Source: Tubulanus polymorphus (lineage: Eukaryota; Animalia; Nemertea). From it: 64,000 nt of DNA. Shown piece after piece: positions 2,588 to 54,176 of this stretch (position 1 is its first letter; each line of letters begins with the position of its first letter). Location of the stretch: positions 8,668,275 through 8,732,274 of the forward strand of contig NC_134032.1 of the NCBI RefSeq assembly GCF_964204645.1. Reading direction: 5' to 3'. The notes under the pieces are model-generated. The model saw nothing but the letters and a program-made list of their open reading frames with translations, was not told the origin of the DNA and did not search any database. A program made the position numbers and the translations under genes.

Positions 2588-15127
<12,540 letters not shown>

Positions 15128-26824: not shown

Positions 26825-27371
26825 ACAAGGAAGCAAGGACTTATTCTTAGCGTGTCAAGGTCGATATTCTTTCAAACTGTCTCATGAATAAGATCTTGGA
26901 TCTTTCATTCTTCATTAATTCAATATATTTCATTTCTTGCAGTTTTGCCAGTTCTGACCCGATCTTAACTTTTTTTGTCCGTTCCATTTTCTTTCGAATA
27001 TCTCATCTGAATGAAATAAACAACTCGCCTGAGAACAAGAAACCACATTTCTTTCATCCATTCTTATGACGTCATCCAGTTGTCCGTACTGTCGTAGTTT
27101 CCTTAGTGAGCAGATGAAATATAGACCCGCAAAAGAACGAACGAACGATGCTGATTCTCTATACAGAACAGGACAGCGCACCGAATGTAAACTTTATTCC
27201 TCAAATATATTCAACCCAAGATGATCGGTGTGAAATCCATGTATTTCTTTTGCAGGATTATCTGACACATTTGTCTAATACAATATTCAGTTTTACGATA
27301 CATTCTATATACTATTCAGTACTGTATAGCTTACAATCGAAAGAAACAATTCAACCTTCGACAAGTATAGA

Positions 27372-27460
27372 AGTAATTAGGAAGTAGGCTTTCATACCAG
27401 AGGTCGAGCGGTCGAGACACCACTCATCACCACAAGTAATTTTTTTTCCTAATAAATGGG
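27372..27460 (+). repeat. Left terminal inverted repeat
   Basis: AGTAATTAGGAAGTAGGCTTTCATACCAGAGGTCGAGCGGTCGAGACACC...CCTAATAAATGGG, reverse complement of 44939-45028. Confidence 0.95.
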
Positions 27461-30400
27461 GGAGAATGAACACCAGCCAGAAAACAATAATGTTAATAAA
27501 AATCAATATTATTGCCAATATTGTAAAAAATACATCGATAAATCCCAAAAATCACGACATGAAAAAACTGCAAATCATATAAAAAATGTAATAGATTTTG
27601 AAACTCCAGAAAATTCCAATGAAAGAAAAGAAAGATTAGAAAATATGAATGTGGATGAAATAAAATGTGAAGTTTGTAATGAATTTATAGTAAAAAGGAA
27701 TTATAATAGACACCTCGAATCACAAAAACACCGCCAAAATTTGAGTAATAATGTTTTAGGAAAACATTATTTTGATGATAAACCTCAACAAGTAAAAAAA
27801 CCAACTTCAAAAACTAAATCCATTTCAAATAAACCTTACATGGAAAATGTTAGAAATTATATTGATTCACTAGAAATAAAAGATACAATTGAAATTTTAG
27901 AAACATTAAATAGTAAAATTGGTCCTGCAGCTATTATATTTAGATTTTTCAAAGGAACAACAATAGAAGATTATAGTAAATTTAATGAAATAATAGAAAA
28001 AATACTAGATTTGATAACAGATGTTGAATATCCAAAAATTAGTATCTCTGGGAAAGTAAGTTTTATAAAGTCAGAAGAAAAATTAAATTATAATATTCAA
28101 ACACACTCTGAAGAAATAATTTCAAAAACACAAATAAAAGAGAAGTTAGAAAAAATATTTAATGAATTTAAACGTCATATTGAAGAAAGATATTTTGAGG
28201 GTTCTGGCTTAACATTGAATGAAATTATATATTTAGATTTAAATGTTTACAATACAAAAAGGAATAAAACATCAAAAAGTAATAAAATGTTTAAAAATGA
28301 TTCAAACTTTACAACAGAAAAGGATATTAAAGCATCATCTTATATTAAATTACCATTTACAACAAAAGCAGCAATAAATGTTCAAAATGAAGATAATAAA
28401 TGTTTTCTATGGTCAATTATTAGCTGTTTACACCCAACAGAAGATATGACGCATAGTTTTAGAATAACAAATTACCCGAAATATGAAACATTATATAAAA
28501 TTGATCAATATCCAGTAACTATAAAAATGATTCCTAAAATAGAAAAAGTTAATAATTTAAAAATAAATGTATTTGAATTAATGCAATTACCAAAGACAAA
28601 AGGTGAAAATATTAAAGATTATACATTGGAAGCTTTATATTTAACAGAATATTATGATGATGAAAATTCTATAGATTCTTTATATTACAAAAAAGATGAA
28701 AATGAACATTATATGTGGTTAAAACAAATTGATTTATGCTTTAGAACAGAAAGTGATCACCATAATAAAATTTATCTATGTAGAAAATGTTTATCTAAAT
28801 TTATGACTGAGAATACATTATTAAAACATAAAGAATTATGTGATAATAAAGATTTCTGCAAATAAATAATGCCAACAGAAAAAGATTATAAATTGAAATT
28901 TACTAATCATAAATTTAAGAATATTGTTCCATTTGTAATTTATGGGGATTTTGAATCGTTGAATAAAGAATTAACCGATCAAGATAGAAAAGAAATATAT
29001 AACAAAAAGCAATTATTAAAATCAATGGATAAAGGAAATGAATTAAATGAAGACACAACACAAGACCCACCAATTATAAATACAATTAAAAAAGTTCATC
29101 AAAGAGCTGCTGCTTATGGAATTTACATCAAATCAAATTATCCCGAATTATATGAAAGTCAATATATTTCTTTTAGAGGTGAAAATGTAGTTAATGATTT
29201 TTGTGATAAAATGATTGAATTAGAAAGTGATTTTGCAAAATTATTAAACAAAAATAAAAGAATAGTTATGAAAAAAGAAGATGAAATTGATTTTAATTAT
29301 GCAACTCATTGTTGTTATTGTGAAAAACGTTTTTATTCATTTGATCAAAAAGTTAGAGATCATGATCATTTAAATTCAAAATATCGTGGAGCTGCTCATG
29401 AAGATTGCAATTTACAAGCTAAGAAAGTTAATTTCGTACCAATATTATTTCATAATTTATCAGGCTATGATACCAACAGTATATTTATAAAACAATTATC
29501 GGGAAAATTGGGTGCAATTAATCAAGAAATAGAAGAATATAATGCTACGAATGGTGTAAATGTAAGAAAATATGATTTTAAACTATTAGCTAAAACATCT
29601 GAAAATTATATTTCATTTCAATTTGGTTGCATTAGATTTTTAGATTTTTATAGATTTCTAGCAAGTTCATTAGATAATTTATCAAAAAGTTTAGTTGATA
29701 ATGATTTTGTTATAACTCGATATTATTATCCAAATGAACAAGATTTTAAATTATTGAGATATAAAGGTGCAATTCCTTATTCATTTTATAAAACACACAA
29801 TGATTTTAATGTAACAGAATTATTAAAAGATCAATTTTAAGATCAATTAAAAGAGGAGTATGTGAAAGACGAAGTGTTTAATAGAACATTAAATATTTGG
29901 AACCATTTTAAGATGAAAAATCATGGTGAATTAGTTGATTTATATTCAAAATCAGATGTTATGATATTGGCTGACATATTTGAAAAATTTAGAGAAGTTA
30001 ATTTGAATCATTTTAATGTTGATCCTTGTTATTGCTAGTCCTGGTTTAACCTGGCAATGTGGTTTAAAATATACAAATGTAGAATTAGATTTATTAAAAG
30101 AACCAGATATGGTTTTATTATTTGAAAAATCAATTAGAGGTGGAATTAGTGGTGTTATGGGAGATAGGTATTTTAAAGCAAATGATGAATATAAATTATT
30201 ATATATTGACGCCAATAATTTATATGGTTGGGCAATGATGCAACCTCAACCATATAAAAATTTTATATTAACAGAAGTTGAAAATGATGATAAAACTAAT
30301 TGGGAAAGCGCAATTATGAGTTTAGAAGATGAAGCACCAATTGGTTATTTCTTTGTAGTTGATTTAGAATATCCTGAAAATATAAAGTTTAAAACAAGAA

Positions 30401-32519
30401 ACTTACCTTATTGCCCAGAACATTTAACTGTAGATGATAGTTATTTAAGTGAATACCAGAAGAAAATAAAACCGAAAGATCATGTTTTTACAGAAAAATT
30501 AATACTTACTCAAAATAATAAATACAATTATATTGTTCATTATAGAATGTTAAAATTTTATCTAAAACAAGGAATGAAATTAAAGAAAGTACATAGATAT
30601 ATTGAATTTAATCAATCGAAGTGGTTAGAAAAATATATAGATTTCAATACTCAACAGAGAACAATATCAAAAACAGATTTTGAAAAAGATTTCATCAAAT
30701 TAATGAATAGTAGTTTTTATGGTAAAACATGTGAAAATATTAGAAATAGAAATGATATTGAATTAGTAAATAATTCTGAACGATTAAGACATTTACAATC
30801 AAGTCCTAGACATTTAGGAAATAAAAGATTTGAAGATTATTTAACAGCAGTTAAATTAAAAAGAACGTCAATGAAATTTAATAAACCTATATTTATTGGT
30901 TCAACTGTTTTAGAAGTATCAAAATTATTAATGTATGATTTTTATTATAATGTTTTAAAACCACTTTTTGGGGAAAAGCATATTGAAATATTATATTTTG
31001 ATTCTGTAACAGCTGACACCCCAATATTATTAAAATGTAATGATAAAATATTGATAAGAAGAATTTCAGAAATAATTCCAAAACAAAATGTTATATTTCA
31101 TATGGTGAAAAAGAATTAATACAAATAAATGGTTTAATAGATGTTTGGACAAGAAATGGATGGAAAAAATTAAAGAATATTATTAGGCATAAAACAAATA
31201 AGAAAATCTATAGAGTTAGAACTAAATTAGGATTTGTAGATGTTACAGAAGATCATAGTTTAATTAAACGAAATGGTGATGAAATAAAATGAACTGATAT
31301 AAAAATTGGAGATGAATTATTACATAAAAGATTTTTCCAAAGAATGAATCATATGTCATTTGATGAAATAATTGATAATATTTATAATATAGAACCCGAA
31401 ACATTAGAAGAAAAAAAATATTTTATCAAAGGATTTTTCATGGGTGATGGTTCAGCAGGTGTGTATAATTATGTTTGGGGTAATAAATATTGTTGGTATT
31501 TATGCAATAAAGACTTAAAATTATTAGAAAGAATTAAGAAATTCTGTGAAGAAGTTTATCCAAATAAAACATTTAAAATCATGGATGTTATGAAATCAAC
31601 AGCAGTTTATAGAATACTTGTAAATAATCCTAAAGATTTTGCTATAAAATATAATGATGAATTCTATATTCATGCAATAGTTAAAAGTAATACTTCAACA
31701 AAAGAAAAGATAGTTCCAGATTATGTATTAAATGCAAAAAATAATTTAAGAAAATGGTTCTTCATTGGATTCTATGCTGCAGATGGTTCAAAAAGTTTCA
31801 AAAACCGCAAAACAATATCTTTAGCTCAAAAAGGAAAAGTTGCTATATCAGGATTGAATATATTATGCAGTTCATTAGGATTTAATATGAATATAGAATT
31901 AATTAAATCTAAACCAAATTGTTTTAATTTAAGGCATGTAGAAAAAGATTTAACTGAAGAAGTTAAAGATTTATTTGAAATATATAACCCAACTGACTAT
32001 GTTTATGATTTATCAACAGATGATGGAACATTCAATTCTGGGTTCCCATTAATCCAAAAAAATACCGATGCGTACATACTAAAAATCAAGACAAATGACA
32101 TAACAAAAGACTTAAAAACATTAAAACATCATTTTGATTTTAGCAATTATCCCAAAGATCATGAACTATTTAGCAATGATAATAAAAAGATTCCTGGTAA
32201 GTTTAAAGATGAATTAAGGGGTGATGAAATGATTGAATTTGTTGGGATAAGAAGTAAAATGTATAGTTACAGAACAAAAGATCATGAAGCTAAAAAGTTA
32301 AAAGGAATAACAAAACATGTGGTTGATAAACATATAGAATTTCAAGATTATTTAAAGTGTTCATATAACTCAATTGTAATGAAACACAAAATGAATTGTT
32401 TAAGATCAGAAGATCATGAGATGTACATTAATGAAGTTGAAAAAACTAGTTTAAATCCATTTGATGATAAAAGACATATTTCAGATGATGGTATAAAAAC
32501 ATTACCTTATGGCCATTAA
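27456..32519 (+). pseudogene. polB: Protein-primed family B DNA polymerase with N-terminal C2H2 fingers, OTU-like region, inserted endonuclease VII-like HNH domain and an intein; disrupted
   Basis: INVQNEDNKCFLWS..HY; ExoI VIYGDFES; VRDHDHLNSKYRGAAHEDCNL; ExoII FHNLSGYD; YIDANNLYGWAM; KLMNSSFYGK; YFD/TD; PGKFKDE; GIRSKMY; KLKGI; PFDDKR..TLPYGH. In-frame stops at 28863, 29838 and 31290; frameshifts near 30030 and 31085. Confidence 0.93.
31003..32063 (+). other. Intein (~354 aa) with LAGLIDADG homing endonuclease inside PolB motif C
   Basis: ILYFD|SVTADTPILLK (block A); VDVTEDHSL (block B TxxH, ~31235-31262); IKGFFMGDG and FIGFYAADG (two LAGLIDADG motifs); YVYDLST (block F); LIQKN|TDAY. Excision restores YFDTD. 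Confidence 0.92.
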
Positions 32520-33841
32520 AACAGAAAATCAATATCATCATACTCGAAATCACTATTGGCTTCTTCATTTTCATCTAATTGTTCTTGTATAATTTGTTTA
32601 GGTTCTTCCATTTCATTTTTCTCATTTAAATAACGTGTTATATTATTCCACATTTCATCTCGCTCTCTTTGTTTCTTTTTGTTTGTTAATTCATCAAATG
32701 GAATTATAATATCTATGTTTAAATAATTTACAATCTTATTTAAAAAGAATTCATAATTTATTGAATCTGTTATTCTATTTTCCAAATGATACATTAATAT
32801 TTGTTTAAATATTTTTTTTATATTTTCCATATCTTCTTCTGTTAATTTAGGTTTTTCATAATAATCGTTAAATAATAAATATAAATACATTTTCTTTTGT
32901 TTTGTGTTAAATGTTGACGGAATAATTGTTTTTATAATATCTTTTTTAGTTATTTCCCCATTTTTATTTTCTATTATTTTCATTTTTTCAAGCCATTGCT
33001 TATATTCTGGTGTATAATCCTCTGTAGAAAATATTTTAAAAATTTCATCTACATAATTTAATTTTGGTTCTATGAGAAAATTTCTAGTTTTTTCTTCACC
33101 CCATAAATTCTTTTGCCATCCACAATCAACACAAAATAACACAGTACCTTCTTGTCTTAAGGCCGCATAACTACATTGTGGACATTTTCGTTTATAATTT
33201 ATTGGTAATAGATCTTCATTAAGCTCCTGGTATTTTCTTACGTATTCTTTATGTTTTATTGTTCTATTATGTAGATTTGAATTACTTGTTGTAATAATCA
33301 ATTTACAATATTTACAATAATATGTTTTTCTTGTTAATTCATTATATTGTTTTTCTAACTTTTCAACTGTTTCTTTATTATCTGGTAACGTTTTCTCATA
33401 TTTTATTTTTTCTAATATATTATTTTTTCTTTCATTGAATTCTGCTTCAAATTTATTAGAAATTTTATCTATATGTGCTTTACGAAATTGATGATTCTCC
33501 CAATCTTCTATATTTTCAGGGTTATATTTTATTCGACAAGGCTCGCAGAAATGATCTTTTATATTATCCTTATCATAGAATAAGAAAGGTCTTTTCCAAA
33601 TAATATCAGGTTCAACTTCAACAGAATTACTATTACTTTCATTACTATCAACATTAGCCGTTGCGCCATTAATTTTACACTTCTCTGAATGTTTTTTAAC
33701 ATAATTTCTTGAGAATAATTTATTACATTTTGGGCAGTTTAGTTTAGGGGGTTTATTTTCATCATGTTTTTTCATATGTCGAGCCATATTACTTTTTCTT
33801 AGAAGTTCACCACAAATTTCGCATGGTATCTTCTCATCCAT
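32516..33841 (-). CDS. Polinton multi-zinc-finger protein (several C2H2 + C4 ribbon, acidic tail)
   Basis: CEICGELLRKSNMARHMKKH, CPKCNK..H..KC, CEPC..H....H, CKYCK..HNRTIKH, CPQC..CVDC; intact 441 aa; TAAATG start. Confidence 0.75.
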   Translation of the reverse strand: MDEKIPCEICGELLRKSNMARHMKKHDENKPPKLNCPKCNKLFSRNYVKKHSEKCKINGATANVDSNESNSNSVEVEPDIIWKRPFLFYDKDNIKDHFCEPCRIKYNPENIEDWENHQFRKAHIDKISNKFEAEFNERKNNILEKIKYEKTLPDNKETVEKLEKQYNELTRKTYYCKYCKLIITTSNSNLHNRTIKHKEYVRKYQELNEDLLPINYKRKCPQCSYAALRQEGTVLFCVDCGWQKNLWGEEKTRNFLIEPKLNYVDEIFKIFSTEDYTPEYKQWLEKMKIIENKNGEITKKDIIKTIIPSTFNTKQKKMYLYLLFNDYYEKPKLTEEDMENIKKIFKQILMYHLENRITDSINYEFFLNKIVNYLNIDIIIPFDELTNKKKQRERDEMWNNITRYLNEKNEMEEPKQIIQEQLDENEEANSDFEYDDIDFLF

Positions 33842-33909
33842 TTATTAAGGAAAAATTTTATTAAAATTAATCTTTAGTGATGAGCGGTAATTTTTTTATG
33901 TTATAAATA

Positions 33910-34666
33910 ATGGTAGAATTAAAAGAATACAGAATATTTGTTGATTCTAGAAAACTTACAAATAATAAATCATATAATTTAATAGTTCAATTAGATAGAG
34001 AATTTAAGAATTGTGTTGATTTAAAATTAGTAAATATAAGTTTATGTAACTCATTTTACAATATATCGGATAAAAGTCTAGAACATTTAATTTTTTCAAT
34101 CTTTTACAAAAAAAGGAATAAATGGTTTTTTATATATTTAAAACTAGGATTATATAATTTAGATACATTAGCACAAGAAATTAATAGAAAAGCTCGAGCT
34201 AAATTAGGGAGTGATTCCGGATTTAGTATTAGAATTTTAAAAAGTGATAGTTCTAATAAAATAAAGATTAGGTTAGCTAATGACGAACAATTTAAATTTA
34301 CAGTAAGAAAACCTTTAGGTAAACTGTTAGGAATTAACCCAGATATTGTTACAGCATACGCAGAAGGTAGATCAAACTTAATACCTTTTACACACTTATA
34401 TTTATTGCAATTTAATTGATCCTACAAAAACATTCGAAGCAACTAAAGATACAATTTGTAATTCTAGTATATTAAATATTTTACCATTAAAGAATGTCAA
34501 ACAATTTGGAACGCAAATAAATTATAATTTGACCGAATGTGATTTTAAACCTTGTATTCCTCAATTTAATATTTTTAAATTAGAAATAAGAAATCATAAT
34601 GGTTATTCAATTGATTTGAATAACTTTCCTGTGATATATGAATTAGTTATAAGATGTAGAGAGTAA
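33910..34666 (+). pseudogene. Minor capsid (penton, single jelly-roll)-like gene with one frameshift
   Basis: IFVDSR, NISLCNSFYNI, GLYNLDTL; after a shift at ~34400 it continues YCNLID...KLEIRNHNGYSIDLNNFPVIYELVIR*, the pattern I associate with Polinton pentons. Confidence 0.65.
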
Positions 34667-34682
34667 TTTTTTCACTATATAA

Positions 34683-35039
34683 ATGAATATAACTGTTGGA
34701 CCGAGTATATGTTTTGGATTTGATTTTAAACGTGAGAAAGAAATGAAATTTAACATTAATGATGTAATTACACATATTAAAAGTATTGCATTTACTAATG
34801 AAACAACATTTGAGTATGAAACAACAATAGATAAAGAAACTTTAAATGTAGAAAAGATTACTAATTTAATTAGAGAATCTTTAAGATTTTATGAATTAGA
34901 TGAAGATTTTATCATAGATGATATTAAAAACATATTAACCGAAATATATGATAATCATAAAAGTAGTAATGAAATAAATGTTGAATTAATCATAAATAAG
35001 TTAACTAAATATTTTGAAGATAGTAATTTTTTTGATTAA
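34683..35039 (+). CDS. Polinton hypothetical protein (118 aa)
   Basis: Intact ORF with TAAATG start in the compact gene array. Confidence 0.6.
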   Translation: MNITVGPSICFGFDFKREKEMKFNINDVITHIKSIAFTNETTFEYETTIDKETLNVEKITNLIRESLRFYELDEDFIIDDIKNILTEIYDNHKSSNEINVELIINKLTKYFEDSNFFD

Positions 35040-35741
35040 TAAATGAGTGATAATAAGTGGATAATAACAGGATTATATAATGGAGCATTACTATCAGTTG
35101 GAACTGTTGGTTATTCAATGGTATTAAAAAAAGTATTTAAAATGGGAAGTGTTAATGTTGATAGATTTGTTCTAAATCGACGAAACGAATCCTCGAAAAT
35201 CTATTGAACACGAAAGCACAGCTACATTTCAAACTCAGCGTGTTTATTTTAGCAACTAACGATGCTGCACTATGCCATATAATGCCGGTTTGCTACAAAT
35301 ATGAAAATATATATATAAGTAATCAATTCAATTTATGCAAAGAAAACTAACCCACAGCAAATCTAAAAATTCGTTACTTACAATTACTGTAGCTCCTCGA
35401 GCAAGTTTCTACGAAAATGACCAATGCTCAACTGTGAGATATTCAATATATACTGTATATATAATGTACTAGACTTAGTAACAACAAAGCATGGAGAGGT
35501 TCAATGAAGGGTTACAAATCCTACAGTACTAAAGCTAAACTCGACTACAATAAAATTCTATAGCAGCAAACCGGACTTCAATTTACAACACAGCACCTCC
35601 TAAACATCCGTATCAGACGGTGTTTGAAAATATAACGATATCATATTACAAAGATTACATGATTACTTCAAATACATATTATTGTCGTATCAAATATAAG
35701 TAATTATCTCGCACATACAAATACAAATTTAATCAAGATAA

Positions 35742-37396
35742 TTATACAATACTCTCTTCCAATACGCAAAGCTTAACTACTGGTCGAACATATTCTGACG
35801 AAGAGGTTTTTACTTTTACCGAACGAATTCGTCCATCATTAGGACTAGGATAAACTTCAATAATACGACCCAATGGCCAATGACCACGAGGAATGTCTTT
35901 GTCTTTGATTAACACTAAGTCACCTAATTTGACATTTTCTGTATTTTCTAGCCACTTGCTTCTCATGGTTAAGGGTGGCAAATACTCTTTCAGCCAGCGA
36001 CGCCAAAAGTGGTCTGCCAGAACCTGGGACTGACGCCATCTTTTTCTACTGTTGATTTCACGCTCATGAAATACTCCAAGGGCCACGACAGAACTAGCAC
36101 CCCCGTGTAAAAAGTGGTTTGGTGTAATGGGTGTAAAATCTGCAGGATCCACGCTATTATAAGTTAAAGGTCGACTATTAACAGATGCTTCCACCTCTAT
36201 AAGCGTTGTTCGCAGCACGTTTTCAGGAAATGATTGTCCTTTAAGGACTGATTTGATAGCCGCCTTTACCGTTCGAACCAATCTCTCCCAAACCCCACCA
36301 AAATGGGGGGGCACAGGGACTATTAAAGGTCCATTTAATACCCTTTTCATGACAAAAATTAGAAATACGAGATTGATTTAATTGTGTTAAACATTCTCTT
36401 AACTCTCTCTCAGCTCCAACAAAGTTGGAACCATTGTCACTATAAATATGACTCGGCTGACCACGTCGCCCAATGAAATTCCTCAGAATTAGTAAAAATG
36501 TGTCAGTTTCCATTGAGTCAGCTACTTCCAAATGTACTGCACGAGTTACTAAACACGTGAATAAGCAAACCCATACTTTGATTGTAGAACGCCCTCTTTT
36601 GATATATAAAGGGCCAAAATAGTCTACCCCACTAAATTGAAAGGGTCTGCAATGGCTAGTAATTCTATGTGCGGGTAAATCCGACATAAAAGGAACTCTA
36701 GGCTTAGCTAATCGACGACGACAACCGAAGCACCGCGAAATCGCACGCTTTGCGACAGATCTAGCTTTAATTGGCCAGTACTTTTGACGAACTAATGAAA
36801 TCAAGTGCTCTGGACCAGCATGGAAATGAATAAGGTGTTCTTTTCGTACAAGAAGCTCCGTGATATGATGAGAGAAAGGGAGAAGCAACTGATGGCGCGC
36901 CTCTGCGGAAACATTTGGAGCATTGTGAATCCTTCCACCTACTCTGATACAGGAGCCATCAAAACTGGATCAAGACAGCGCAAAGAACTATGATCCTTTA
37001 ACTTCCCCTTTTTAAGGAAAGAGAACTCCTCTGGGAATGAGTCACGTTGGGCTTGAGAAACTAAGCATGTTTCCGCAAAATCAAAATCTTCCACTGTCAA
37101 AGTTTTTGCTTTTACAGCTTAACGTGGAACGTGTGAGGCAAAATTCCTGATAGCCCTTAAAATCCAAGCTGTTCTGCGTAACAAAGGGTACCAACGAGAA
37201 TAATCCTCCGGCTGTACAAGACCCGTTAAGTCAATGACTGGCTCAGCCTGAGGAAATGCTAAGACTTTATTCACTAGCTTAGTTTTCTTGAGATTTTCAT
37301 CTATATCTGAAATGATACCTAGATCAGGCTGAGACGGCCATTGCTTTTCAGGAACACGGAGAAATTCTGGACCTGCAAACCAACGATGCGAAAAAG
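35742..37396 (-). pseudogene. BEL/Pao end of RNase H region + integrase, fragmented
   Basis: RWFAGPEFL; H...HAG...RQKYW...CFGC; GVDYFGP, FTCLVTRAVHLE, SDNGSNFVGA, PHFGGVWERLV, WPLGRI; frameshifts and stops. Confidence 0.88.
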
Positions 37397-39565
37397 TCAG
37401 ATCAGAAAGTTCTCAATTTGTCGTGAGAGTGAATTTTCATCAACAAGAGAGCATTCCGAAACAATTGAATGGACGTGAACATCGCACAAGTCATTTGACA
37501 TGTTCCCAAACAAACACCACCCTAATCTAGTCCGAATAGCTAAGGGCTGATTTGATGTCCCTTCCCTTACCTCTAATTGTATATGTGCTCTAGGTACATT
37601 TGCACCCAAAAGTACTTTAACCTGACGTGGGAATGTATCAGGAAATCGCAGACCCTCTAAATGTTTCAACTTATGAGGAGAAAATTCATTATATTTCTGA
37701 AGTGGACAACTGATATTACCAGATGTAGTCCATGCTTGGGACACATGAATGATTTCTGACAAAGGATCATTGCTTCGAACGGTAAAGGAAACACGGCGAG
37801 ATAACTGTGCATCGCTTGAGTGAAGTGTGTTGATAGTCAATACTTGTTTTTTACCAGACAACCCTAAATCAATAGCCAGATCTTCACGGATTAATGTCAC
37901 GTCACTCCCAGAATCCAGCAGACCATACGTCGATATACGTCTTCCGTTAGCACCCTGAACCACAATCGGCAAAACCTGAAAATACACGTCAGAACAATTA
38001 CTATCGAGACCAAGAACTATATTGCGTTCTATTGCGCTAGGTGCTACACCTTGACTACTACTGGCTTGCGATTCACTATTACAAGTGTCTAGATTCTGAG
38101 TTTGATTCTTTTGTTCAATATCATTAATTTTGATTTTACGTTTAACATGAAGCAGTGTATGATGTCTCTTGCCACACCCTGGTTCTTTACAGCAAGAAAG
38201 AGATTTGCAAGTCGCAATGAAATGACCAGGTGACAAACAATTAATACACAAACGTAATCTCTTGACTAGAGCAAATCTTTCATCTACCGATTTATCAATG
38301 AAATCTCCACAATTACTCACAGAATGACTACCTGAACAAATAACACATTCAAATATTTTCCCACCTGACACGCAACTGCTAGACATCTGTTTCGTGGAAT
38401 TATTCACATTGATTTTCCGTGATCCTAAAGCATTACTAGAAAAATTATTACGTTTCAATTTCAACCTATTTTGTTGTAATGAAAATGGACCGAAGTCAGC
38501 GTCAACACAATCTTTGAGCCAACTTTCTAGATCAAACAATGTAGGATCTCGTTGTCGAGATATACGTCTAACGAATTCGTTCCATTTTGAACGCTTGTCA
38601 ATCGGGATACGTTTTACAACTTTCTGTAATAAATCACTACTGCCAATTTCAGAAAGATAATTCATTTGTTTTAGAGTAATTAAGCAATCTCTCACACTAA
38701 TGTAAAAGGAACGTAATGATATTGAATCATATGAATTTGTGGGTGGACCGTTCGTAATTGATTCAATATAAGCCCTAGCTACGTGTACTCTGTGTCCAAA
38801 CACAAACTTTAGCTCCTTAAGGGAGCGTGCATAATTACAACCACTAAACCCAAGACCTTGAATGAGCTCTCTGGCCTCACCTTTCACATGCGACTGCAGA
38901 AGGTCTTGACGTCTGGAATCTTTGATCCCGGGACGATTATGTATATATACTTGCACATAAAACTGCTCAATGAACCTTGGCCATACAAGTGGTGAACCGT
39001 CGAACATCGGGAGACCAATTTTCGGTAAATCTCGATCAATCTCCATCTTGATAACGGCTTCTTCCAGGGAGGTTGATGATTCCACATTTACTATAGTTTC
39101 GACTCCTTCGACCAAATCATCGATCCACGCATCAATGGTCCTAAGCGACGAGTTGTTTACAGCATTCGTCACGACATTCTCTGAAAGATCCTCTGCAAAT
39201 GGATGCGACACGGAAGATGTAGACGACGCTTGGAAAACGGGTGCATTCGGATCAAGAGACGAGTCTCTTTTAGCAAAATTGTCTAACCTTTCTAAAGCAA
39301 CCATAGCTTTATCGAAATAACACTCCATCCAACGCCCAGCGGTTTCGATTTCTTCTTCATTCTCGAGTACAGACATGAACTTGTCGTGAGCAGTTTGCAG
39401 ATTTTGCAAACATCCAGTGATACGTTGCTTTGCCGGTTCAACAGCCGCCGATATGCGAACTGAATCCGCAGCATCAATAGCACGAGTAAGCCAACCAGCG
39501 AGACTTGTACGAGTGGCTTTCAACGACTTACTTTTACTAGTATTTGAATCTTCGTTATCGGTCAT
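37397..39565 (-). CDS. gag-pro: BEL/Pao Gag + aspartic protease
   Basis: LPMFDGSPLVWPRF (DUF1759-like), triple Cys-His cluster CVIC..H...C / CINCLSPGH..C / CKEPGCGKRHHTLLH, protease LLDSGSD, RTRLGWCLFG. Confidence 0.9.
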   Translation of the reverse strand: MTDNEDSNTSKSKSLKATRTSLAGWLTRAIDAADSVRISAAVEPAKQRITGCLQNLQTAHDKFMSVLENEEEIETAGRWMECYFDKAMVALERLDNFAKRDSSLDPNAPVFQASSTSSVSHPFAEDLSENVVTNAVNNSSLRTIDAWIDDLVEGVETIVNVESSTSLEEAVIKMEIDRDLPKIGLPMFDGSPLVWPRFIEQFYVQVYIHNRPGIKDSRRQDLLQSHVKGEARELIQGLGFSGCNYARSLKELKFVFGHRVHVARAYIESITNGPPTNSYDSISLRSFYISVRDCLITLKQMNYLSEIGSSDLLQKVVKRIPIDKRSKWNEFVRRISRQRDPTLFDLESWLKDCVDADFGPFSLQQNRLKLKRNNFSSNALGSRKINVNNSTKQMSSSCVSGGKIFECVICSGSHSVSNCGDFIDKSVDERFALVKRLRLCINCLSPGHFIATCKSLSCCKEPGCGKRHHTLLHVKRKIKINDIEQKNQTQNLDTCNSESQASSSQGVAPSAIERNIVLGLDSNCSDVYFQVLPIVVQGANGRRISTYGLLDSGSDVTLIREDLAIDLGLSGKKQVLTINTLHSSDAQLSRRVSFTVRSNDPLSEIIHVSQAWTTSGNISCPLQKYNEFSPHKLKHLEGLRFPDTFPRQVKVLLGANVPRAHIQLEVREGTSNQPLAIRTRLGWCLFGNMSNDLCDVHVHSIVSECSLVDENSLSRQIENFLI

Positions 39566-40142
39566 GATGAGCTTTCGAGTAATTCAAACTATAATGTTCT
39601 AAATCGACGAAACGAATCCTCGAAAATCTATTGAACACGAAAGCACAGCTACATTTCAAACTCAGCGTGTTTATTTTAGCAACTAACGATGCTGCACTAT
39701 GCCATATAATGCCGGTTTGCTACAAATATGAAAATATATATATAAGTAATCAATTCAATTTATGCAAAGAAAACTAACCCACAGCAAATCTAAAAATTCG
39801 TTACTTACAATTACTGTAGCTCCTCGAGCAAGTTTCTACGAAAATGACCAATGCTCAACTGTGAGATATTCAATATATACTGTATATATAATGTACAAGA
39901 CTTAGTAACAACAAAGCATGGAGAGGTTCAATGAAGGGTTACAAATCCTACAGTACTAAAGCTAAACTCGACTACAATAAAATTCTATAGCAGCAAACCG
40001 GACTTCAATTTACAACAGATTTGATATAAATGATATTTCAAAATTAACATTAGCAGTTACTTTATCTAATTTAACTATTGATTATTTAGAAAAACAAAAA
40101 TATATTCCTCCCATATAAATGCATAATTTTTTTGCTAAATAA

Positions 40143-40565
40143 ATGGCTTCTGCAATTATAACTATTATAGGATCGGCAATTGTTAACGCTTTAGCATTTA
40201 CTGGTGGCGGTTATTTATTTAAGCATATTGATAAAAATAGTTCATTAGGAGAACAAAGAAGACATAATTTAGCATTAGAGAAATATAATAAAGCAGCAGA
40301 AGAATACAGAGAAAAACGACAAAACTATATGGATTATATTAACAAGGAATTATATGATCAGAAGATTTCACATAGAGATTTTCAATCAGTTGATGATGCA
40401 ATGAGTTTATATAACGCAGTAACCAATAAAGAAAAATTACATCTATACAAACCTAAATTATCAGATTATTATACCCCAAGTAAAGAACAACAGAAATATG
40501 AAATAATTTGGATTTTAGGTGGAACAGTTATTGTTATATTTGTAGCATATAAATTTACTAATTAG
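40143..40565 (+). CDS. Polinton small membrane/coiled-coil protein (140 aa)
   Basis: N-terminal hydrophobic VNALAFTGG, EQRRHNLALEK, C-terminal TM; TAAATG start. Confidence 0.75.
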   Translation: MASAIITIIGSAIVNALAFTGGGYLFKHIDKNSSLGEQRRHNLALEKYNKAAEEYREKRQNYMDYINKELYDQKISHRDFQSVDDAMSLYNAVTNKEKLHLYKPKLSDYYTPSKEQQKYEIIWILGGTVIVIFVAYKFTN

Positions 40566-40584
40566 TAATTTTTTTTCTAAATAA

Positions 40585-41019
40585 ATGGAAGATAAAGTTG
40601 ATAGTATTGATATTATTCCTCATGATATAAATAAAACTAAATTAAAAATATATTTAGAAAAACAAATATTAGAATTTGAAAGTGACTTAAAGATAAAAAA
40701 GAAAAAATATTTAAAAAGTAAAATTATATATTATCTTATTATTAGTGGTTCGGTTACAATTAGTTCTGTAATAACATTTCTAGCAATATTCAGTCCATTA
40801 ACACCTTTAACTATATCAATTGGTGTATTAGGATTAACTTCAAGTGTTTTAACTGGTATAAGTTCAAAATTAAATATAAAAAGTAATAAAGAAATAATTA
40901 AAACTAATATAAAAGAAATTAATAAATTGAAGAATACACTAGATTATATAATAAGTTTAAATGGTCATATAACAGTTGAAGAACAAGATAATTTATTAAA
41001 AGAATTAATAAATTATTAA
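40585..41019 (+). CDS. Polinton two-TM protein (144 aa)
   Basis: Central hydrophobic hairpin flanked by Lys-rich coils; TAAATG start. Confidence 0.7.
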   Translation: MEDKVDSIDIIPHDINKTKLKIYLEKQILEFESDLKIKKKKYLKSKIIYYLIISGSVTISSVITFLAIFSPLTPLTISIGVLGLTSSVLTGISSKLNIKSNKEIIKTNIKEINKLKNTLDYIISLNGHITVEEQDNLLKELINY

Positions 41020-41035
41020 TTTTTTAATTAAATAA

Positions 41036-41566
41036 ATGGTAGATAGTTTTCCAAAAGCTTTCCAATATAATAAATCAATTAAATATAATATTCCTGCAAT
41101 AGATTTTAATAAAGATATTACATATAGAAATGAAGTTTTAGATTCATTAACTAATTTAGAAATTTATGTTACTGAAACTAATAATTTTAATGCAAAGATG
41201 GAAAATATATTTCATGTATATTTAATTAATTTTAAAAAATTGAAAGATGAAAAACAATGGTTATTAAAATCTAATATGAAGTATTGGCAGAACCAATTAA
41301 ATTTTGCTGTTTATTGTGCAACAACAGGTTGTGGAATTAGTTGGAATGATCATTTGAATAATTCTAAATATAAATTAATTCAAAGTTTATTTAGATTTCA
41401 TACATACTTTCAAATCAGAATAATATTAAATGAATTAGAGTGCGCTTTACCAAAATATATATATAATTACACTCATCCATTCATCCACTCATCCAATTCA
41501 TCCAATTCATCCAATTCATCCACTCATCCATCAATATACAGTGAATTCTATAATATTTTGAATTAG
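41036..41566 (+). pseudogene. Polinton-associated protein, apparently truncated at ~41452
   Basis: YWQNQLNFAVYCATTGCGIS...FRFHTYFQIR..L.EL.CALP, then runs into TCATCCA simple repeats. Confidence 0.6.
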
Positions 41567-41588
41567 GATTTTATTTTATAAATTTATA

Positions 41589-41731
41589 TTCTTGTTAAAT
41601 CTATTTGAATAGAAATCAAAAAGATTTAAATAAAAAAACAATAAGTTACTTTATCTAATACTAACTTATTTAACTTATTGTTTTTTTATTTAAATCTTTT
41701 TGGATTTCTATTCAAATAGATTTAACAAGAA
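41589..41731. repeat. Long hairpin (60-bp arms, ~22-nt loop)
   Basis: 41589-41648 pairs with 41671-41731 with one indel. Confidence 0.9.
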
Positions 41732-42109
41732 ATTCAATAACTTTAACTGTTAGTATCACTCTTGTATTATTTCATTGTTTCTCTTATTGAATAAGCCAAC
41801 TAACTAATATCACTCTTGTATTATCCTAGTCAATTGTAAAGAATTTACAATATCATACTTGAATGAATTAAAACATAAATTACTTCTGTTACTTCATTTT
41901 CAGAAATAAAGCATAATATGTATTCAATACCATTAATACGTATTTAATACCATCAATACGTATTTGATACGTATTTAATACATGGTATTAGGGTATCTAA
42001 TAGGGTATCTAATACATTGATACCTCAACCCCCCTTTTTTATTAACTTTTATTTTCATACATTTCAACTAATATATTTTATATTTTCAGCTAATTTAACA
42101 GTCGATTTC

Positions 42110-42412
42110 TTATTTTGATTCATATAATTTTTCATCAAGTTCATGAATATACATGTGATTTCTCAAACTCTTTTTATTTTTATATCTTTTATTGCATATT
42201 TCACAGCATTTAATATTATTCAATCTATCTGAAATATAATTCATATTTTCTATTAATTCAGTGTATCTAATTTTACAGCAATCATAGAATTCTAACAACT
42301 GTTTTATACTATAAATTGAAAAAGAAAATAAACCTGTAAGCATAATAATTGATTTAATATTCTGTTGATTTTTATATATTAGATGTAATAAGTTTAATAT
42401 ATTTTCACTCAT
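42110..42412 (-). CDS. Polinton small protein with C-terminal C2H2 finger
   Basis: CEICNKRYKNKKSLRNHMYIH; hydrophobic N-terminal segment; TAAATG start. Confidence 0.65.
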   Translation of the reverse strand: MSENILNLLHLIYKNQQNIKSIIMLTGLFSFSIYSIKQLLEFYDCCKIRYTELIENMNYISDRLNNIKCCEICNKRYKNKKSLRNHMYIHELDEKLYESK

Positions 42413-42432
42413 TTATTTATTTAATTAATTCA

Positions 42433-42630
42433 CTAATCTGATTCAATAACTTTTTTATGATTATTTTTATTTCCATTTAATTTTTTCAATTTCTTGCTCA
42501 ATTTTATATTTTCATTCATCAAATCCTTACTAATATTCTCATAGTATAAATAAAGCGCAGCCAATATTAATCCTCCTGCTACAAGATAATGTTTCAAATC
42601 ACTTTTCCCAGTTGGGATGAAACCATCCAT
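42433..42630 (-). CDS. Polinton small single-TM protein (65 aa)
   Basis: YLVAGGLILAALYLYY; TAAATG start. Confidence 0.6.
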   Translation of the reverse strand: MDGFIPTGKSDLKHYLVAGGLILAALYLYYENISKDLMNENIKLSKKLKKLNGNKNNHKKVIESD

Positions 42631-42756
42631 TTATTTAAGAAAGAAATTAAACAGTTTATAAAATATTTGCTAGTTTTTAATTAAATATTTTATAATCATT
42701 TTAAAAATATTAAATTTTTAAATGATTAAATCAAATAACAATTAAATTTACAGCCA

Positions 42757-43035
42757 AACAATTTAACATTTCAACTGTCAAACAATTTATCATTTCAACT
42801 GTCTTATCATTTCAACTGTCAAACAATTTATCATTTCAACTGTCAAACAATTTATCATTTCAACTGTCAAACAATTTATCATTTCAACTGTCAAACAATT
42901 TATCATTTCAACTGTCAAACAATTTATCATTTCAACTGTCAAACAATTTAACATTTCAACTGTCAAACAATTTATCATTTCAACTGTCAAACAATTTATC
43001 ATTTCAACTGTCAAACAATTTATCATTTTAACAGT
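42757..43035. repeat. 24-bp tandem repeat (~11 copies)
   Basis: (TCATTTCAACTGTCAAACAATTTA)n. Confidence 0.95.
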
Positions 43036-43088
43036 CTATTAGATATTTAAATCATTTAACTCAATTCAATAATTATAATGTAGAATTG

Positions 43089-43739
43089 TTACTCTTTACA
43101 CCAGTTTTTATGTTGAATTGTTTCATAATGCTTTGATTTATGTGATTTTAAATATTTACCTCCGCAATAACAATGCACTTTTTCATTAGGATTGAATTTT
43201 CTAAATTCATCATCTAATTTACATTGAACTGCAATATCTTTAAATGATTTTTCATTATCTAATTCACATTGAATGCCAATATTTGATGAATTTTCATTAT
43301 AGATAATTTGTTTATTATCAAAATTGAAATAATATAATTGTCTTTTTTCAATTCTTAAGTTAATCAAATCATTGTAATCTTTTGAAAGTATTATATCATC
43401 ATTTCTTTCATTGAAAGGAGTTTTAAGAATATTAATTATGTTTTCATCTAAAGTTCCTTTAAAATTTAAAACTGTATTGAATACTTTAGGATTTTTAACA
43501 CCATTATCAAAAGTATCTACTAGTTCAGTAATTAAATATGTTTCATTTGATAATATTTGATTAATTACAGTAATATTTTCAATTTTATAATACCTTGCGG
43601 ACACTAAATTTGTTGCCGAAATATAATTTTTAATGTAAAACTGTGAAAATGATTTATTGGTTTCATTGATTTCGATTTTAAAGTTGGGTTCTTCTTCTTC
43701 TTTCTTCATTTTTACAACAAAATTTTTATTAAAACTCAT
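43089..43739 (-). CDS. Polinton protein with C-terminal CxC..H..T..H zinc finger (216 aa)
   Basis: VHCYCGGKYLKSHKSKHYETIQH; intact ORF. Confidence 0.65.
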   Translation of the reverse strand: MSFNKNFVVKMKKEEEEPNFKIEINETNKSFSQFYIKNYISATNLVSARYYKIENITVINQILSNETYLITELVDTFDNGVKNPKVFNTVLNFKGTLDENIINILKTPFNERNDDIILSKDYNDLINLRIEKRQLYYFNFDNKQIIYNENSSNIGIQCELDNEKSFKDIAVQCKLDDEFRKFNPNEKVHCYCGGKYLKSHKSKHYETIQHKNWCKE

Positions 43740-43859
43740 TCAAATATAAATATTCAATGTTTTAAATATGAATTATTTCACTCACACTTTTATATTGAAT
43801 AATCTATCAATTTATATGTTATTCATATATATTTTATTCATGTATATGATTATTTTAAG

Positions 43860-44202
43860 AGTAATAGGGGTAATGGGCTTTCAGGTTAAAGGTTGAATGG
43901 TCGAGTTCATTAAAAAATGAAAAACATGAAAATAATAACAATTTCTACTTGAATTAGGAGTGAAACTCATAAAAAATGAAAAATAATTCTCACACGCTCG
44001 AATTTATTTCACTCACACTTTACTCACACTTTTTTCTAGCGAGTAAAAATGAAAAATAAATTCGAGTGTGTGAGAATTATTTTTCATTTTTTATGAGTTT
44101 CGCGACTAATTCAAGTAGAAATTGTTATTATTTTCATGTTTTTCATTTTTTACGAGCTCGACCGTTCGACCTTTGGCTTGAAAGCCCATTACCCCTATTA
44201 CT
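43860..44202. mobile_element. 343-bp foldback mini-element with Polinton-like termini
   Basis: ~150-bp arms; AGTAAT...ATTACT ends; the first ~46 bp align with the host Polinton TIR; imperfect 6-bp flanks TTTAAG/ATTAGG. Confidence 0.75.
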
Positions 44203-44616
44203 ATTAGGCGCCTTTAATATAATGTGTTTCCTGTCAACCATTGAAGGAGAATTGGTGAGGTGTGGGTCACAGGGGTGTAATTAGAAATGCTTGGGGATAG
44301 GTATCTCGTGGCGCCTCTCAATAACGGGATGCTTATCCCCTAAAAACTCTGTGAGTCAAGTCGGGTGGTTTTGCTAAAACTTACCGTAAAAACATTGAAA
44401 TATTCCTTTTAATCACGAGAGAGAATGTATCCTCCTGTCCTGTGTGTGTTGTATGTACTGCGTGCTTATTATATAACTGCTATAACAACAACGTTGAATT
44501 GCAACACCTGTTTGATCGATCAATATGTAACAGATGTTTGACTGTATGATTGTAGTTGTTTGTAAAACGACTAAGGTCATTTTGGATTCTAGATATTCAT
44601 TATTTTTATCTCTTAT

Positions 44617-44943
44617 TTAATCAACAATTTCTAAATCATGATGACCGTCTTCATTTTTCCCATGGTGGATTATTTTAAATCTTTCTAAATCTTTTAATTC
44701 CTCTGTACTCAATGAAACCCATTTATCAGGTAAAAATACTTTAAATTCTCGCGATGTACTAACATTACAGTAGCTTAAATTCGCTGATACTTTCTCTCCA
44801 TATTTAGTTTTTATCTTTTCTAATTTCAATATTTTATGTTCAATTTCTTTTGTAACATCAACTAACTTTTTTATTTCAAATTGTTTTTTTGCTGGTTTAA
44901 TTCTGTTATTTATTGTTGCTAAGAATGCTTTTCTATCTCCCAT
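44617..44943 (-). CDS. Polinton 108-aa protein, possibly OB-fold ssDNA-binding
   Basis: KIKTKYGEKV..L...FKVFLPDKW pattern; ATG lies inside the right TIR. The fold is inferred. Confidence 0.6.
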   Translation of the reverse strand: MGDRKAFLATINNRIKPAKKQFEIKKLVDVTKEIEHKILKLEKIKTKYGEKVSANLSYCNVSTSREFKVFLPDKWVSLSTEELKDLERFKIIHHGKNEDGHHDLEIVD

Positions 44944-45028
44944 TTATTAGGAAAAAAAATTACTTGTGGTAATGAATGGTGTCTCGACCGCTCGACCTCT
45001 GGTATGAAAGCCTACTTTCCCAATTACT
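44939..45028 (-). repeat. Right terminal inverted repeat
   Basis: Ends ...CAATTACT followed by TSD TATAGA. Confidence 0.95.
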
Positions 45029-45542
45029 TATAGACAATTCCATCCTCCCTCGGCAGGGATTTGAACCTGATGGCATCGCTACACTCAGCCACGGCACTAA
45101 CCCCTGCCACACTAGACCGGGTGCGCAGGTACATGCGAAGCTTTGCCGCACGAAAACTTGCGGCACCAATCAGATTGCTCGTTGCATAATCGCTGAGGTA
45201 AATTTAACGGAAGAACTATAAATGGGAAAACCCGGGCTGAAATAAAACGGGATATCTGATCGGCTAATAATGACATCATCTAGGCTGCGCATGTAGCTGC
45301 ACACTCGGTCTAGTGTGGCAGGGTTTCGTACCGAGGCAATCTCAATCTCGGGGGAGGATGAGACAAATCTGGAAAGGATGGCTGCTTCAATAAATCGCCC
45401 CAAGTACATAAAACCCATAGATAGATTTTATCGCATTAGGCGGATTACACAATAGAGCGGTCCGAATGGATTACCGGCCAGACCGGTACCGGTTTAGGTG
45501 CAGACTGTCCGATAAAATATACATACCACCAATCAAAAATCT

Positions 45543-46828
45543 CGGCGCTAGTCCAGTATACGACATTATAGTGCGTGCGTAGAGTTACACTGCGTTATTC
45601 GGTCAGTGTTCACAGCAGTTGACCGTTGACAGTCGACACCTAAAGTAAACTATGAGAACAGGTGGCAACCTATCAACCCGTCATCCAGCACTGAAGTATA
45701 ACAGTTTTTCCACCCCTTTAATTGCTATTTGTCTTCATAATTTTCATCGTCTCTCATAAATCCATTGCGTATTATGAAGTTGCGGATGATTCGGATGATA
45801 TCGTCATTTCGAAACACAAAAAGGCATGTATATATAACATTCAAATATAATATATCTAGATAGCTATTAAAATTGGTGGAAGGGTGGTTTTTTATGTTGA
45901 TTTGACAAATCGTTGGTCCTAAATAACCTTGGGAAGGTTTTTAGCATAGTTTAAAATGTGAATGATTAGGGTTAGGGTTCGGGTTAGGTTTAGAGTTAAG
46001 GGTTACTATGAGGCTTCAATTCAGGAATCAGTGAACTATACTATTGGCAGTTGGGATACTTTTTCTCTGTTAAGGAACATGAATATATCATTTAATATTA
46101 TAGACATGTGACGCTGCTGTATGTCTCCACTGATGTGTATGTCTGCACATCAACCAACCTATCGAAGACAAGTTTCCGGCAAGTATATAATTAAATGATA
46201 TATAAAATATTATATCAATTGATTTTTGGGAATAATTGATTAGGAAGATGTCCTCGAAACAGAAGACTAGACGATTAGTATACGCGTTCACACGGAATCT
46301 AGGTGAGAGGCCTGTCGTTAACCGTCCGGTACAGTTATCACCTTACTGAGGGTGTCTACCTGTCATCCATTCTGTGCGATCATCACCTAACTGTTGTGTA
46401 GGGTGTCTACCTGTCAACCGTCCTGTGCAGTCATCACCTAACTGTTGTATTGGGTGTCTACCGGTTAACCGTTCTGTGCAGTCATTACCTTACTGTTGTA
46501 TAGGGTGTCTACCTGAAGTCCGTCCTGTGCAGTCATCACCTAACTGTTATGTAGGGTGTCAGCTGTCAACCGTCCTTTGGAGTCGTCACCTAACTTGTGT
46601 GTAGGGTGTCATCTGTCAACCGTCATTTAGAGTCATCACCCTAGTATGTAAGGTGTCGCGTGTCATCAGCTGTAAAATATGATCCCCATCAAGGATCTAT
46701 TTTCATGGAACTTCTTTTAGTTCCATATTACTACGCTTTTATATTTCAGCTTGCGCATTAATTCCCCGATTTACTCCAAAAGTATCTCTACACGTTGCAC
46801 TATAATGTCGTATATCGGACTTGGGCCG
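45543..46828. mobile_element. Non-autonomous TIR element with an internal ~60-bp minisatellite (copy 1)
   Basis: Imperfect ~42-bp TIR CGGC..AGTCC..TATACGACATTATAGTGC..GTAGAG; AAATCT on both flanks; tandem GTAGGGTGTC..CTGTCAACCGTCCTGTG.AGTCATCACCTAACT at ~46305-46640. Confidence 0.8.
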
Positions 46829-50337: not shown

Positions 50338-50635
50338 AAGTCTCTCGTGCGTTTGTCTGGTGCTCTCAATTTACCCTGCTGTCGTGTTATGCTGCTGTGC
50401 CTGTAAACCTTTACGTTTATTTTTTCTACAATATGTATGATGTATTAATATATGTGGTAAAGTATATATCTTAATGTCCCAACGAAACTGCTGTGTCTAT
50501 AATACTAATTTACTAGTTACTAGATATTCCTATTACCTCAACAACATATATACTCTACTGTTCTGCAAGAATGTTAACTGCGTATACTTGAATTACTTTG
50601 TTTTAGTCTCTTACTTGTACATTTCTCCTATCAAT

Positions 50636-53600: not shown

Positions 53601-54176
53601 AGTCTCCACTCACTTCTGGAATGCCTCGACCTCTCAGGTGTTTGGTGCAATCAAGGGTCAAACCATCCAAAAAAGATAATTAATCTACTGCAGTCTAAAA
53701 TAAAAGCTCTTTATTCTTCCATTTGGCTCAAAGAAATTAATGACTCAAACAAAAACCCAAAACTCCGATCCTACAAACTATTTAAATCACGCTTCATTAT
53801 AGAAAATTATATTGTTGCCAACAACTTCACAAATCGCCGCGAATTCTCCAAATTACGCCTTGGGTCCCATCATCTCCGTATTGAAACTGGACGACATCAC
53901 AAACCTCCAATACCGGTTCCCGATAGGATCTGTCAATTTTGCTCAGATCAATCTGTTGACGATGAACTGCATTTTCTGATCAACTGTTCATACTCCGACA
54001 GTGCCAGGTCTGATATTTTCACGTATTTGGACACTTTTACCGATTTCAGGACCATGTCTCACATTGATAAATTCGCCTTTCTGATGTCTTACAATAACAA
54101 CGATCCCGAAATTTCCACAATTGTTTGCGATTTGGTCAATAAACTGGTTAAGCTAAGACTCGACTCCATTTCATAG
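50636..54176 (+). pseudogene. LINE ORF2 (APE endonuclease + reverse transcriptase) with two frameshifts
   Basis: WNVDG, ETH, GDFNA, ILNGR..GD..G.FT, SVIDY; KAVGPDNI, NYRGI, FVDFKAAFDS, GVKQGCVLSPLLFN, LYADD, YLGI; RIC..C...DELHFLINC. Shifts at ~51990 and ~52385. Confidence 0.92.

Follow-up and report, generated by a model that had tools for sequence, protein, structure and literature searches.

We analyzed a window of 64,000 nucleotides from the nemertean Tubulanus polymorphus (contig NC_134032.1, positions 8,668,275 to 8,732,274 of the forward strand) that carries, at positions 27372-45028, a Beta-type Polinton in which nearly every gene begins with the same start motif, TAAATG. The element is flanked by a 6-bp target-site duplication (TSD), TATAGA, on the left (27366-27371) and on the right (45029-45034; neither is assigned a strand). 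Its termini read AGT...ACT, and its terminal inverted repeats (TIRs) of ~92 bp differ at 4 positions and by one gap. The left TIR (27372-27463, plus strand) starts with AGT and holds a promoter-like motif together with the ATG of the gene for a B-family DNA polymerase of the protein-primed type (pPolB); the right TIR lies at 44936-45028 on the minus strand. Two features of Beta-type Polintons, a protein-primed PolB and AG/AGT-ended TIRs with a 6-bp TSD, are present. A first-pass annotation of this DNA had proposed an integrated pPolB element with TIRs and a 6-bp TSD, and our analysis bears this out; absent from that annotation was a nested BEL/Pao retrotransposon, which takes up 4.85 kb of the interval and leaves a Polinton core of ~12.8 kb. 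The GC content is 0.24 in the element and 0.42 in the flanks, and no signs of introns were seen, as judged from the DNA alone. The Pfam scan found no RNA polymerase gene among the open reading frames (ORFs) of the element, where ORF 43739 gave a sub-threshold match to Rpb1_5 (E 0.016; 15 bits versus a cut-off of 28.5), and Rfam returned no match.

The pPolB gene (27456-32519, plus strand) encodes N-terminal zinc fingers and an endonuclease VII-like insert and is broken by stops or frameshifts near 28865, 29840, 30030, 31100, and 31290. Its pieces are 67 to 87% identical to the intact gene of locus L027 (protein P0060). Because it has zinc fingers, a weak endonuclease VII match, and no match to PF03175 in the Pfam scan, it fits the Beta class as described in the available text of PMC8502044; some intact homologs (P0006 and P0067) do match PF03175. 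The pPolB core differs from that of L027 by 61 synonymous and 41 replacement codon changes in 320 codons, and this ratio indicates that the gene was, to judge by its codons, under purifying selection until recently.

Converging on pPolB and overlapping it by 4 bp is a gene for a 441-amino-acid (aa) zinc-finger protein (32516-33841, minus strand), a homolog of which adjoins pPolB in L027 (42%). It is followed by a frameshifted gene with a TAAATAATG start (33910-34666, plus strand) that may encode a penton-like minor capsid protein, based on a weak DUF5901 match (E 0.009) and 25% identity to protein P0183 of L029, for which the structure model is beta-rich and of low confidence; we take DUF5901 genes to be pentons. 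The remaining plus-strand genes are a 118-aa orphan ORF (34683-35039), a small hydrophobic gene interrupted by the BEL/Pao insertion (35043-40117), with a similar-looking 76-aa ORF in the same gene block of L029, a 140-aa ORF with hydrophobic ends (40143-40565; homolog in L032, 43%), a 144-aa ORF with two membrane segments (40585-41019; weak SLATT match, E 0.01), and the 5' portion of a conserved ~440-aa protein, the QLNFA..CA..CG family, which is ended early by a simple repeat (41036-41566). On the minus strand lie a 100-aa C2H2 zinc-finger ORF (42110-42412), a 65-aa membrane-type ORF (42433-42630), a 216-aa ORF (43089-43739), and a 108-aa terminal ORF (44617-44943) that begins inside the right TIR and has homologs upstream of pPolB in L023 and L026 (33 to 36%). 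Tandem genes lie 3 to 25 bp apart.

The copy in the window is a dead, internally deleted, non-autonomous derivative and not a full member of the Polintons, since its core has no capsid, ATPase, or integrase match. No rve integrase was found outside BEL/Pao by the Pfam scan and tblastn, and a tblastn search of the window with 3219 ORFs from loci L001-L182, including carriers of double jelly-roll (DJR) capsid and A32 ATPase genes, gave no match for a DJR major capsid protein, an A32 ATPase, or a protease. Because depth in read set X6 falls to ~66 at 41442-42095, an internal deletion likely lies at or near this site. An rve integrase gene stands beside pPolB in the close relative L024, and the loci of pPolB relatives encode rve integrase, A32 ATPase, and the Polinton-type DJR capsid (PF21738). 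The presence of this capsid argues against membership in the virophages as defined in the ICTV taxonomy (Maveriviricetes/Virophaviricetes).

We then considered how the genes start. Ten of the 12 genes begin with TAAATG, one with TAAATAATG, and one (43739) has no such motif. The background is far lower, at 7 to 8%: TAAATG is found at 42 of the element's 528 ATGs and heads 9 of 127 short ORFs that are not genes (Fisher P = 1e-8). A shared TAAATG on almost all genes had been proposed in the first-pass annotation; the signal proved stronger than claimed, comprising a whole two-part late layout that is conserved in relatives. In poxviruses, a late promoter consists of a T-rich core, a 5- to 7-bp spacer, and TAAAT(G/A), according to the available text of PMC5294985, which agrees with the annotation's naming of TAAAT(G) as the poxvirus late initiator. 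This full layout (a run of 5 to 8 T, a spacer of 5 to 7 bases, and TAAAT(G/A)) heads 9 of the 12 genes, so that a helper-type late promoter, one mark of a virophage lifestyle, is found on most of them. The element core holds 12 instances of the pattern T5+ N5-7 TAAAT(G/A), 9 of which lie at gene starts, whereas 200 simulated runs averaged 2.2 and never exceeded 6; the ~46 kb of flanking DNA contains two instances and BEL/Pao none.

The layout is found on all gene classes, pPolB included. The motif lies within both TIRs, where it heads both terminal genes, and it heads both genes of the divergent pair at 33841 and 33910. Since these terminal and divergent genes have no same-strand gene upstream, the motif is more than an overlap of stop and start codons. 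In the closest relatives (L023, L024, and L026-L029), 18 of the 20 listed ORFs start with TAAATG, and one of the two misses is a pPolB truncated by the contig end. Read from the DNA, this promoter layout would imply dependence on a helper virus. Many TAAATG starts were also seen in L010, L049, L055, and L098, which are Beta Polintons of other branches that encode an ATPase, an integrase, or a capsid protein; in L010, an IMG/VR contig, they head 7 of 9 genes.

The window pPolB also contains a predicted self-splicing intein with a LAGLIDADG homing endonuclease (31003-32063, plus strand; S...N|T), whose frame is broken. It lies at YFD|TDA, where intein-free relatives read YFDTD, and 103 of 125 homologous inteins outside Polintons lie at YGD|TD(S/C), in agreement with the earlier proposal of an intein at the PolB site used by giant viruses. 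The LAGLIDADG_3 match is clear (E 1e-7); the intein N-terminal match is weak and below the cut-off (E 8e-4). The insert has the features of a PolB motif-C intein, namely an N-terminal S/C, a C-terminal N, a +1 T/S/C, Hint blocks, and a YxD|TD site. The residue before its last is K, a feature that several viral alleles share. The intein frame, broken in the window copy, is intact in P0006, P0067, and P0077, and the C-terminal part of the window intein is ~60% identical to the P0006 intein. The best inteins of viral contigs are 41 to 43% identical to it. The region search returned 1302 proteins, and among the 120 listed nearly all carry PF00136 (RNA-primed PolB). Nothing significant was found for the intein in the PDB.

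Trees of pPolB and of the intein had been proposed as a check. For the intein we used 132 sequences, every profile match that exceeded 250 columns and 100 bits. The window intein pairs with P0006 (support of 95) in an eight-row clade that has 100% support and holds only pPolB inteins (seven distinct rows after one duplicate is dropped). With a prokaryotic outgroup, this clade nests among giant-virus inteins (95). Clustering away from the inteins of nucleocytoplasmic large DNA viruses would have spoken against the first-pass annotation; the window intein instead groups with the PolB inteins of giant viruses, as a Polinton-specific clade, and far from prokaryotic inteins. Prokaryotic matches are at most 30% identical, except for three contigs filed in bacterial metagenome-assembled genomes (L183-L185), whose PolB inteins lie at YGD|TDS and nest among those of giant viruses; these contigs are probably misbinned viral DNA. 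Two of six names of giant-virus metagenome-assembled genomes that we looked up were found, both Imitervirales, in the available text of PMC8575486.

Carriers of the intein and relatives without it are intermingled in the pPolB tree, the latter including P0010 and P0060 (87% identity). Protein P0077, from the European Nucleotide Archive, is an Alpha-type pPolB (PF03175, E 9e-32) that has no significant BLAST match to the Beta-type P0013 (best E 0.38); at its YLD|TD site lies an unbroken intein that belongs to this clade. Because an Alpha-type polymerase carries an intein of this clade, the tree indicates that the intein has moved between the Alpha and Beta polymerase classes. As far as sequences can tell, the intein appears to be a record of an old exchange with giant viruses and not a link to a present helper that uses this promoter.

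A complete motif-C intein clade in Polintons appears to be undescribed. Among literature titles and abstract openings, a body in which most subscription papers are not covered, we found neither TAAATG promoters nor a complete motif-C intein in Polintons. The word intein is absent from the main texts of PMC8502044, PMC11131425, PMC8097293, 10.64898/2026.06.19.733378, and 10.64898/2026.10.13.758929, and PMC12220804 and PMC3671162 mention inteins in general terms only. Homing-endonuclease inserts in Polinton pPolBs have been described as probable intein remnants, with no complete intein at this site (PMC11161782). Nuclear inteins are reported from fungi and some protists, with animals not named in the available text of PMC5784728.

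Reads of X6 were used to estimate how common the family is. Bins in a host YTH exon served as the single-copy control (depths of 8.6 and 10.2). The pPolB bins reach depths of 366 to 468, corresponding to about 40 copies at a likeness of 85% or more. The intein bin reaches 235 (about 25 copies) and an adjoining non-intein bin 288, a gap that by itself is no proof of intein-free sisters; none of the 15 joints shown skips the intein. Compared to X6, read set X1 over-represents the element, with an X1/X6 ratio of 12 to 61 at five low-depth element positions, 4.5 to 8 at four other-repeat positions, 1.2 at a fifth, and ~3 for single-copy DNA, ratios that rest on contig depth sums and are not copy numbers. 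The excess in X1 could reflect free copies, individual variation, or AT bias. Read sets X7 and X8 covered neither the element nor the YTH gene of the host and so bear on expression in neither direction.

Taken together, these results lead us to an account to which we give an even chance. The window copy is one of a multi-copy family of Beta-type Polintons, for whose transcription a cytoplasmic large DNA virus likely supplies the RNA polymerase; the family would replicate like a virophage and persist in integrated form between infections. The helper's late-stage polymerase would start at the AAA of TAAAT and yield leaderless or 5'-poly(A) mRNAs, and pPolB would copy the linear genome from the TIRs. 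Integrase, capsid, and ATPase would be supplied by intact sister copies, as the integrase beside pPolB in L024 may illustrate. The intein would go back to a single ancient exchange with a giant-virus PolB, after which it was kept, lost, and homed among Polintons; its source and today's helper need not be one virus. We favor a virophage-like lifestyle because endogenous virophages likewise have a single promoter class for all their genes; mavirus genes generally carry a late-type promoter. Among endogenous mavirus-like elements (EMALEs), only those with helper-like late promoters were reactivated, according to the available text of 10.1101/2025.10.09.676808. Yeast harbors high-AT cytoplasmic pPolB elements that use a TAAA initiator and undergo fragmentation through nuclear polyadenylation (PMC6211774, in part), and occlusion bodies of entomopoxviruses contain Polinton-like viruses (PLVs) (PMC11296320, in part).

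A wider reading, possible though doubtful in our view, is that one entire lineage within the animal Polintons consists of endogenous virophages of an undiscovered poxvirus-like virus of invertebrates. The promoters would then predict transcription by the helper, and the jumps of the intein between Alpha and Beta classes would mark repeated co-replication in shared virus factories. The first-pass annotation had suggested transcription by, and gene exchange with, a Nucleocytoviricota virus of this animal. The promoter layout and the intein family support this in part; they identify no single helper, and the exchange that the intein appears to record is old. We also tried the idea that intein and promoter came from the same virus and rejected it, as the giant viruses with related inteins seldom use TAAATG and the exchange is old.

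Several observations weigh against a helper-dependent family. The 80 giant-virus loci whose inteins are related begin just 92 of their 865 ORFs with TAAATG, and the form with a T run plus TAA heads only 6 of 876. No TAAATG-rich helper virus was found among 120 viral loci beyond one locus with 3 of 6; when viral contigs were scanned for the motif, each of the 80 loci listed of the 120 had one match. TAAATG starts are few in the full set of 102 pPolB loci (71 of 604 ORFs). In more distant Beta elements the AT-rich starts are looser, for example TATATAAA(A)ATG, while the strict TAAATG form reappears on branches that are not related (L010 and L098); the motif may therefore be a variant of a general compact start. 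An approximately unbiased test on a 43-row subset allows the Polinton inteins to lie outside the viral clade (P = 0.28), so that transfer may have gone in either direction.

The general compact start is central to an explanation that we consider unlikely, namely that the element is a nuclear Polinton of the ordinary kind, which relies on the host's RNA polymerase II for transcription. The motif would then be a compact junction signal in an AT-rich genome, made of a T-rich spacer, a poly(A) signal, an in-frame stop, and an A-rich start context, and the intein would be an ancient passenger. At five tandem junctions the start motif does include or adjoin AATAAA, which could be the poly(A) signal of the upstream gene, AT-rich starts are general in Beta elements, and the ~40 integrations of the family require access to the nucleus. 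Intact Mavericks of vertebrates, moreover, lack introns, with RNA polymerase absent from their eight core genes (PMC8097293, in part). The low GC content and the missing RNA polymerase gene named in the first-pass annotation are real, but do not discriminate the element from ordinary Mavericks; we therefore gave no evidential weight to AT richness or to the lack of introns and of an RNA polymerase, the latter two because ordinary Mavericks share both. A junction signal does not account for terminal and divergent genes that have the same motif at a fixed spacing. Coding DNA of the element holds 5.6 AATAAA per kb, undepleted: 53 sense-strand sites were observed versus 48.6 expected in 9.5 kb, 103 versus 105 in relatives, and 325 versus 318 in giant-virus genes, in a test that had no AT-rich nuclear control because sites are too scarce in the BEL/Pao and LINE ORFs. 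Where pPolB and the zinc-finger gene converge, their ends overlap by 4 bp, and no AATAAA follows within 70 bp of either stop; a single ATTAAA overlaps the pPolB stop. Sense-strand depletion of TTTTTNT (7 versus 15.1) was set aside as a poxvirus-specific sign, since giant-virus genes are depleted too (79 versus 130).

Two other explanations dispense with a helper. Transcription factors or polymerase parts encoded by intact sisters (TBP, TFIIB, or VLTF3-like) might recruit the host polymerase to the motif. VLTF3 homologs are known from coral Polintons (PMC11131425), and the window copy has lost an internal block in which such a gene could have lain. This looks improbable to us, with no such gene among the 14 ORFs of the element or 28 scanned ORFs of relatives, and with a motif that also heads pPolB and hence offers no late-only switch. 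The promoters might instead be relics of a virophage-like ancestor, in a family that now spreads only by vertical inheritance and duplication and has no present-day helper. Several genes of the window copy are indeed broken, and of the 86,177 X6 reads on the stretch only 3,570 are at least 99% alike, most being 90 to 95% alike. The TIRs and TSD are nearly perfect, however, relatives keep intact pPolB frames with intact motifs, and the excess of synonymous over replacement changes between the pPolB cores of the window and L027 points the same way, so that we hold present-day relics to be very improbable.

The helper-dependent family can be compared with several known systems, each described here from the available part of its source. 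The window copy shares with Beta adintoviruses and Maverick-Polintons (PMC8502044 and PMC8097293) a divergent pPolB with weak or no PF03175 match, AGT TIRs, a 6-bp TSD, and intronless genes, but it has no integrase, major capsid, ATPase, or protease; promoters of these elements are undescribed in the main texts of both papers. The PLVs of entomopoxviruses (Barth et al. 2024, PMC11296320) are likewise TIR elements of ~12 to 13 kb, some with pPolB and no detectable integrase; one is integrated in an animal genome, and they have been proposed to be hyperparasites of poxviruses. They were sequenced together with a poxvirus, whereas the window Polinton is known without a helper and is likened to them by description; the words promoter, motif, TAAAT, and intein do not occur in the main text of that paper. 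Mavirus and EMALE virophages and the PLVs of Tetraselmis (10.1101/2025.10.09.676808) are also pPolB elements in integrated form, with a late promoter of helper type common to their genes. In contrast to the window family, they have protist hosts, Imitervirales-type helpers, and another motif (TCTA for late genes of CroV, PMC5294985), and their activation has been demonstrated by experiment.

The inteins in DNA-directed DNA polymerases (DdDP) of Mimiviridae, Phycodnaviridae, and Iridoviridae lie at YGD|TDS (PMC5784728) and share with the window intein the motif-C site, S...N ends, LAGLIDADG, and ~41 to 43% identity, but the host protein of the window intein is a protein-primed polymerase of an element integrated in the nucleus. 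Yeast pGKL elements (PMC6211774) resemble the window Polinton in having TIRs, pPolB, ~75% AT, and a TAAA initiator like a poxvirus promoter; unlike it, they have an RNA polymerase gene of their own and stay unintegrated. For animal Polintons, virions have yet to be seen, according to the available text of 10.64898/2026.06.19.733378.

The motif bears on the mode of transcription of animal Polintons and on their possible dependence on giant viruses, and a precise poxvirus-type promoter on nearly every gene offers a signature for finding the helper virus. The intein clade provides independent evidence that Polintons and giant viruses exchanged genes long ago and that the intein moved between the two polymerase classes that are deepest among Polintons. 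It also means that complete inteins occur in DNA that seems to be of animal nuclear origin. If an endogenous virophage lineage is involved, animal nuclear genomes would hold a working intein family, and the insertions would be candidates for an inducible antiviral defense.

The ~440-aa protein family of 41036 has a C-terminal membrane segment and adjoins the penton-like gene in L029 (L029:157-1476). It had no Pfam or Atlas match and two weak matches of unknown function in PHROGs. Its candidacy as a divergent major capsid protein was unsupported, the low-confidence model being helical with a C-terminal membrane segment; two structure predictions (mean pLDDT of 37 and 36) were too poor for a fold search. 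Scans of viral contigs with a pPolB piece, this family, and the L024 integrase yielded no confirmed relatives.

The nested BEL/Pao long terminal repeat (LTR) retrotransposon (35168-40017, minus strand) is foreign to the Polinton and appears young, with 423-bp LTRs that have 1 difference and a 5-bp TSD, AGATT. Since 513 X6 reads skip it, sister copies without BEL/Pao exist. Within the element, 42790-43030 is a tandem array of a 24-bp unit in about 10 copies, and 43860-44202 (unstranded) is a near-perfect palindrome of ~343 bp (fold z of -30). Its AGT...ACT ends resemble a Polinton TIR, and no 6-bp TSD accompanies it. At 44202, 1691 X6 reads continue into diverse sequence, so that this end derives from a high-copy family; the palindrome is either a mini-Polinton or the terminus of another Polinton. 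Outside the element, 45537-57794 contains long inverted repeats with 50- to 51-bp subrepeats around LINE-like ORF1/ORF2 (48076-54176), and a methyltransferase-like ORF (54653-55570) likewise lies inside these repeats; the region is probably a separate TIR element. An animal host is consistent with the YTH-domain gene, the LINE, and BEL/Pao in the window and with the TTAGGG-repeat reads that were present. The host coding exon with a YTH domain (YTHDF-like) lies at 13282-15084.

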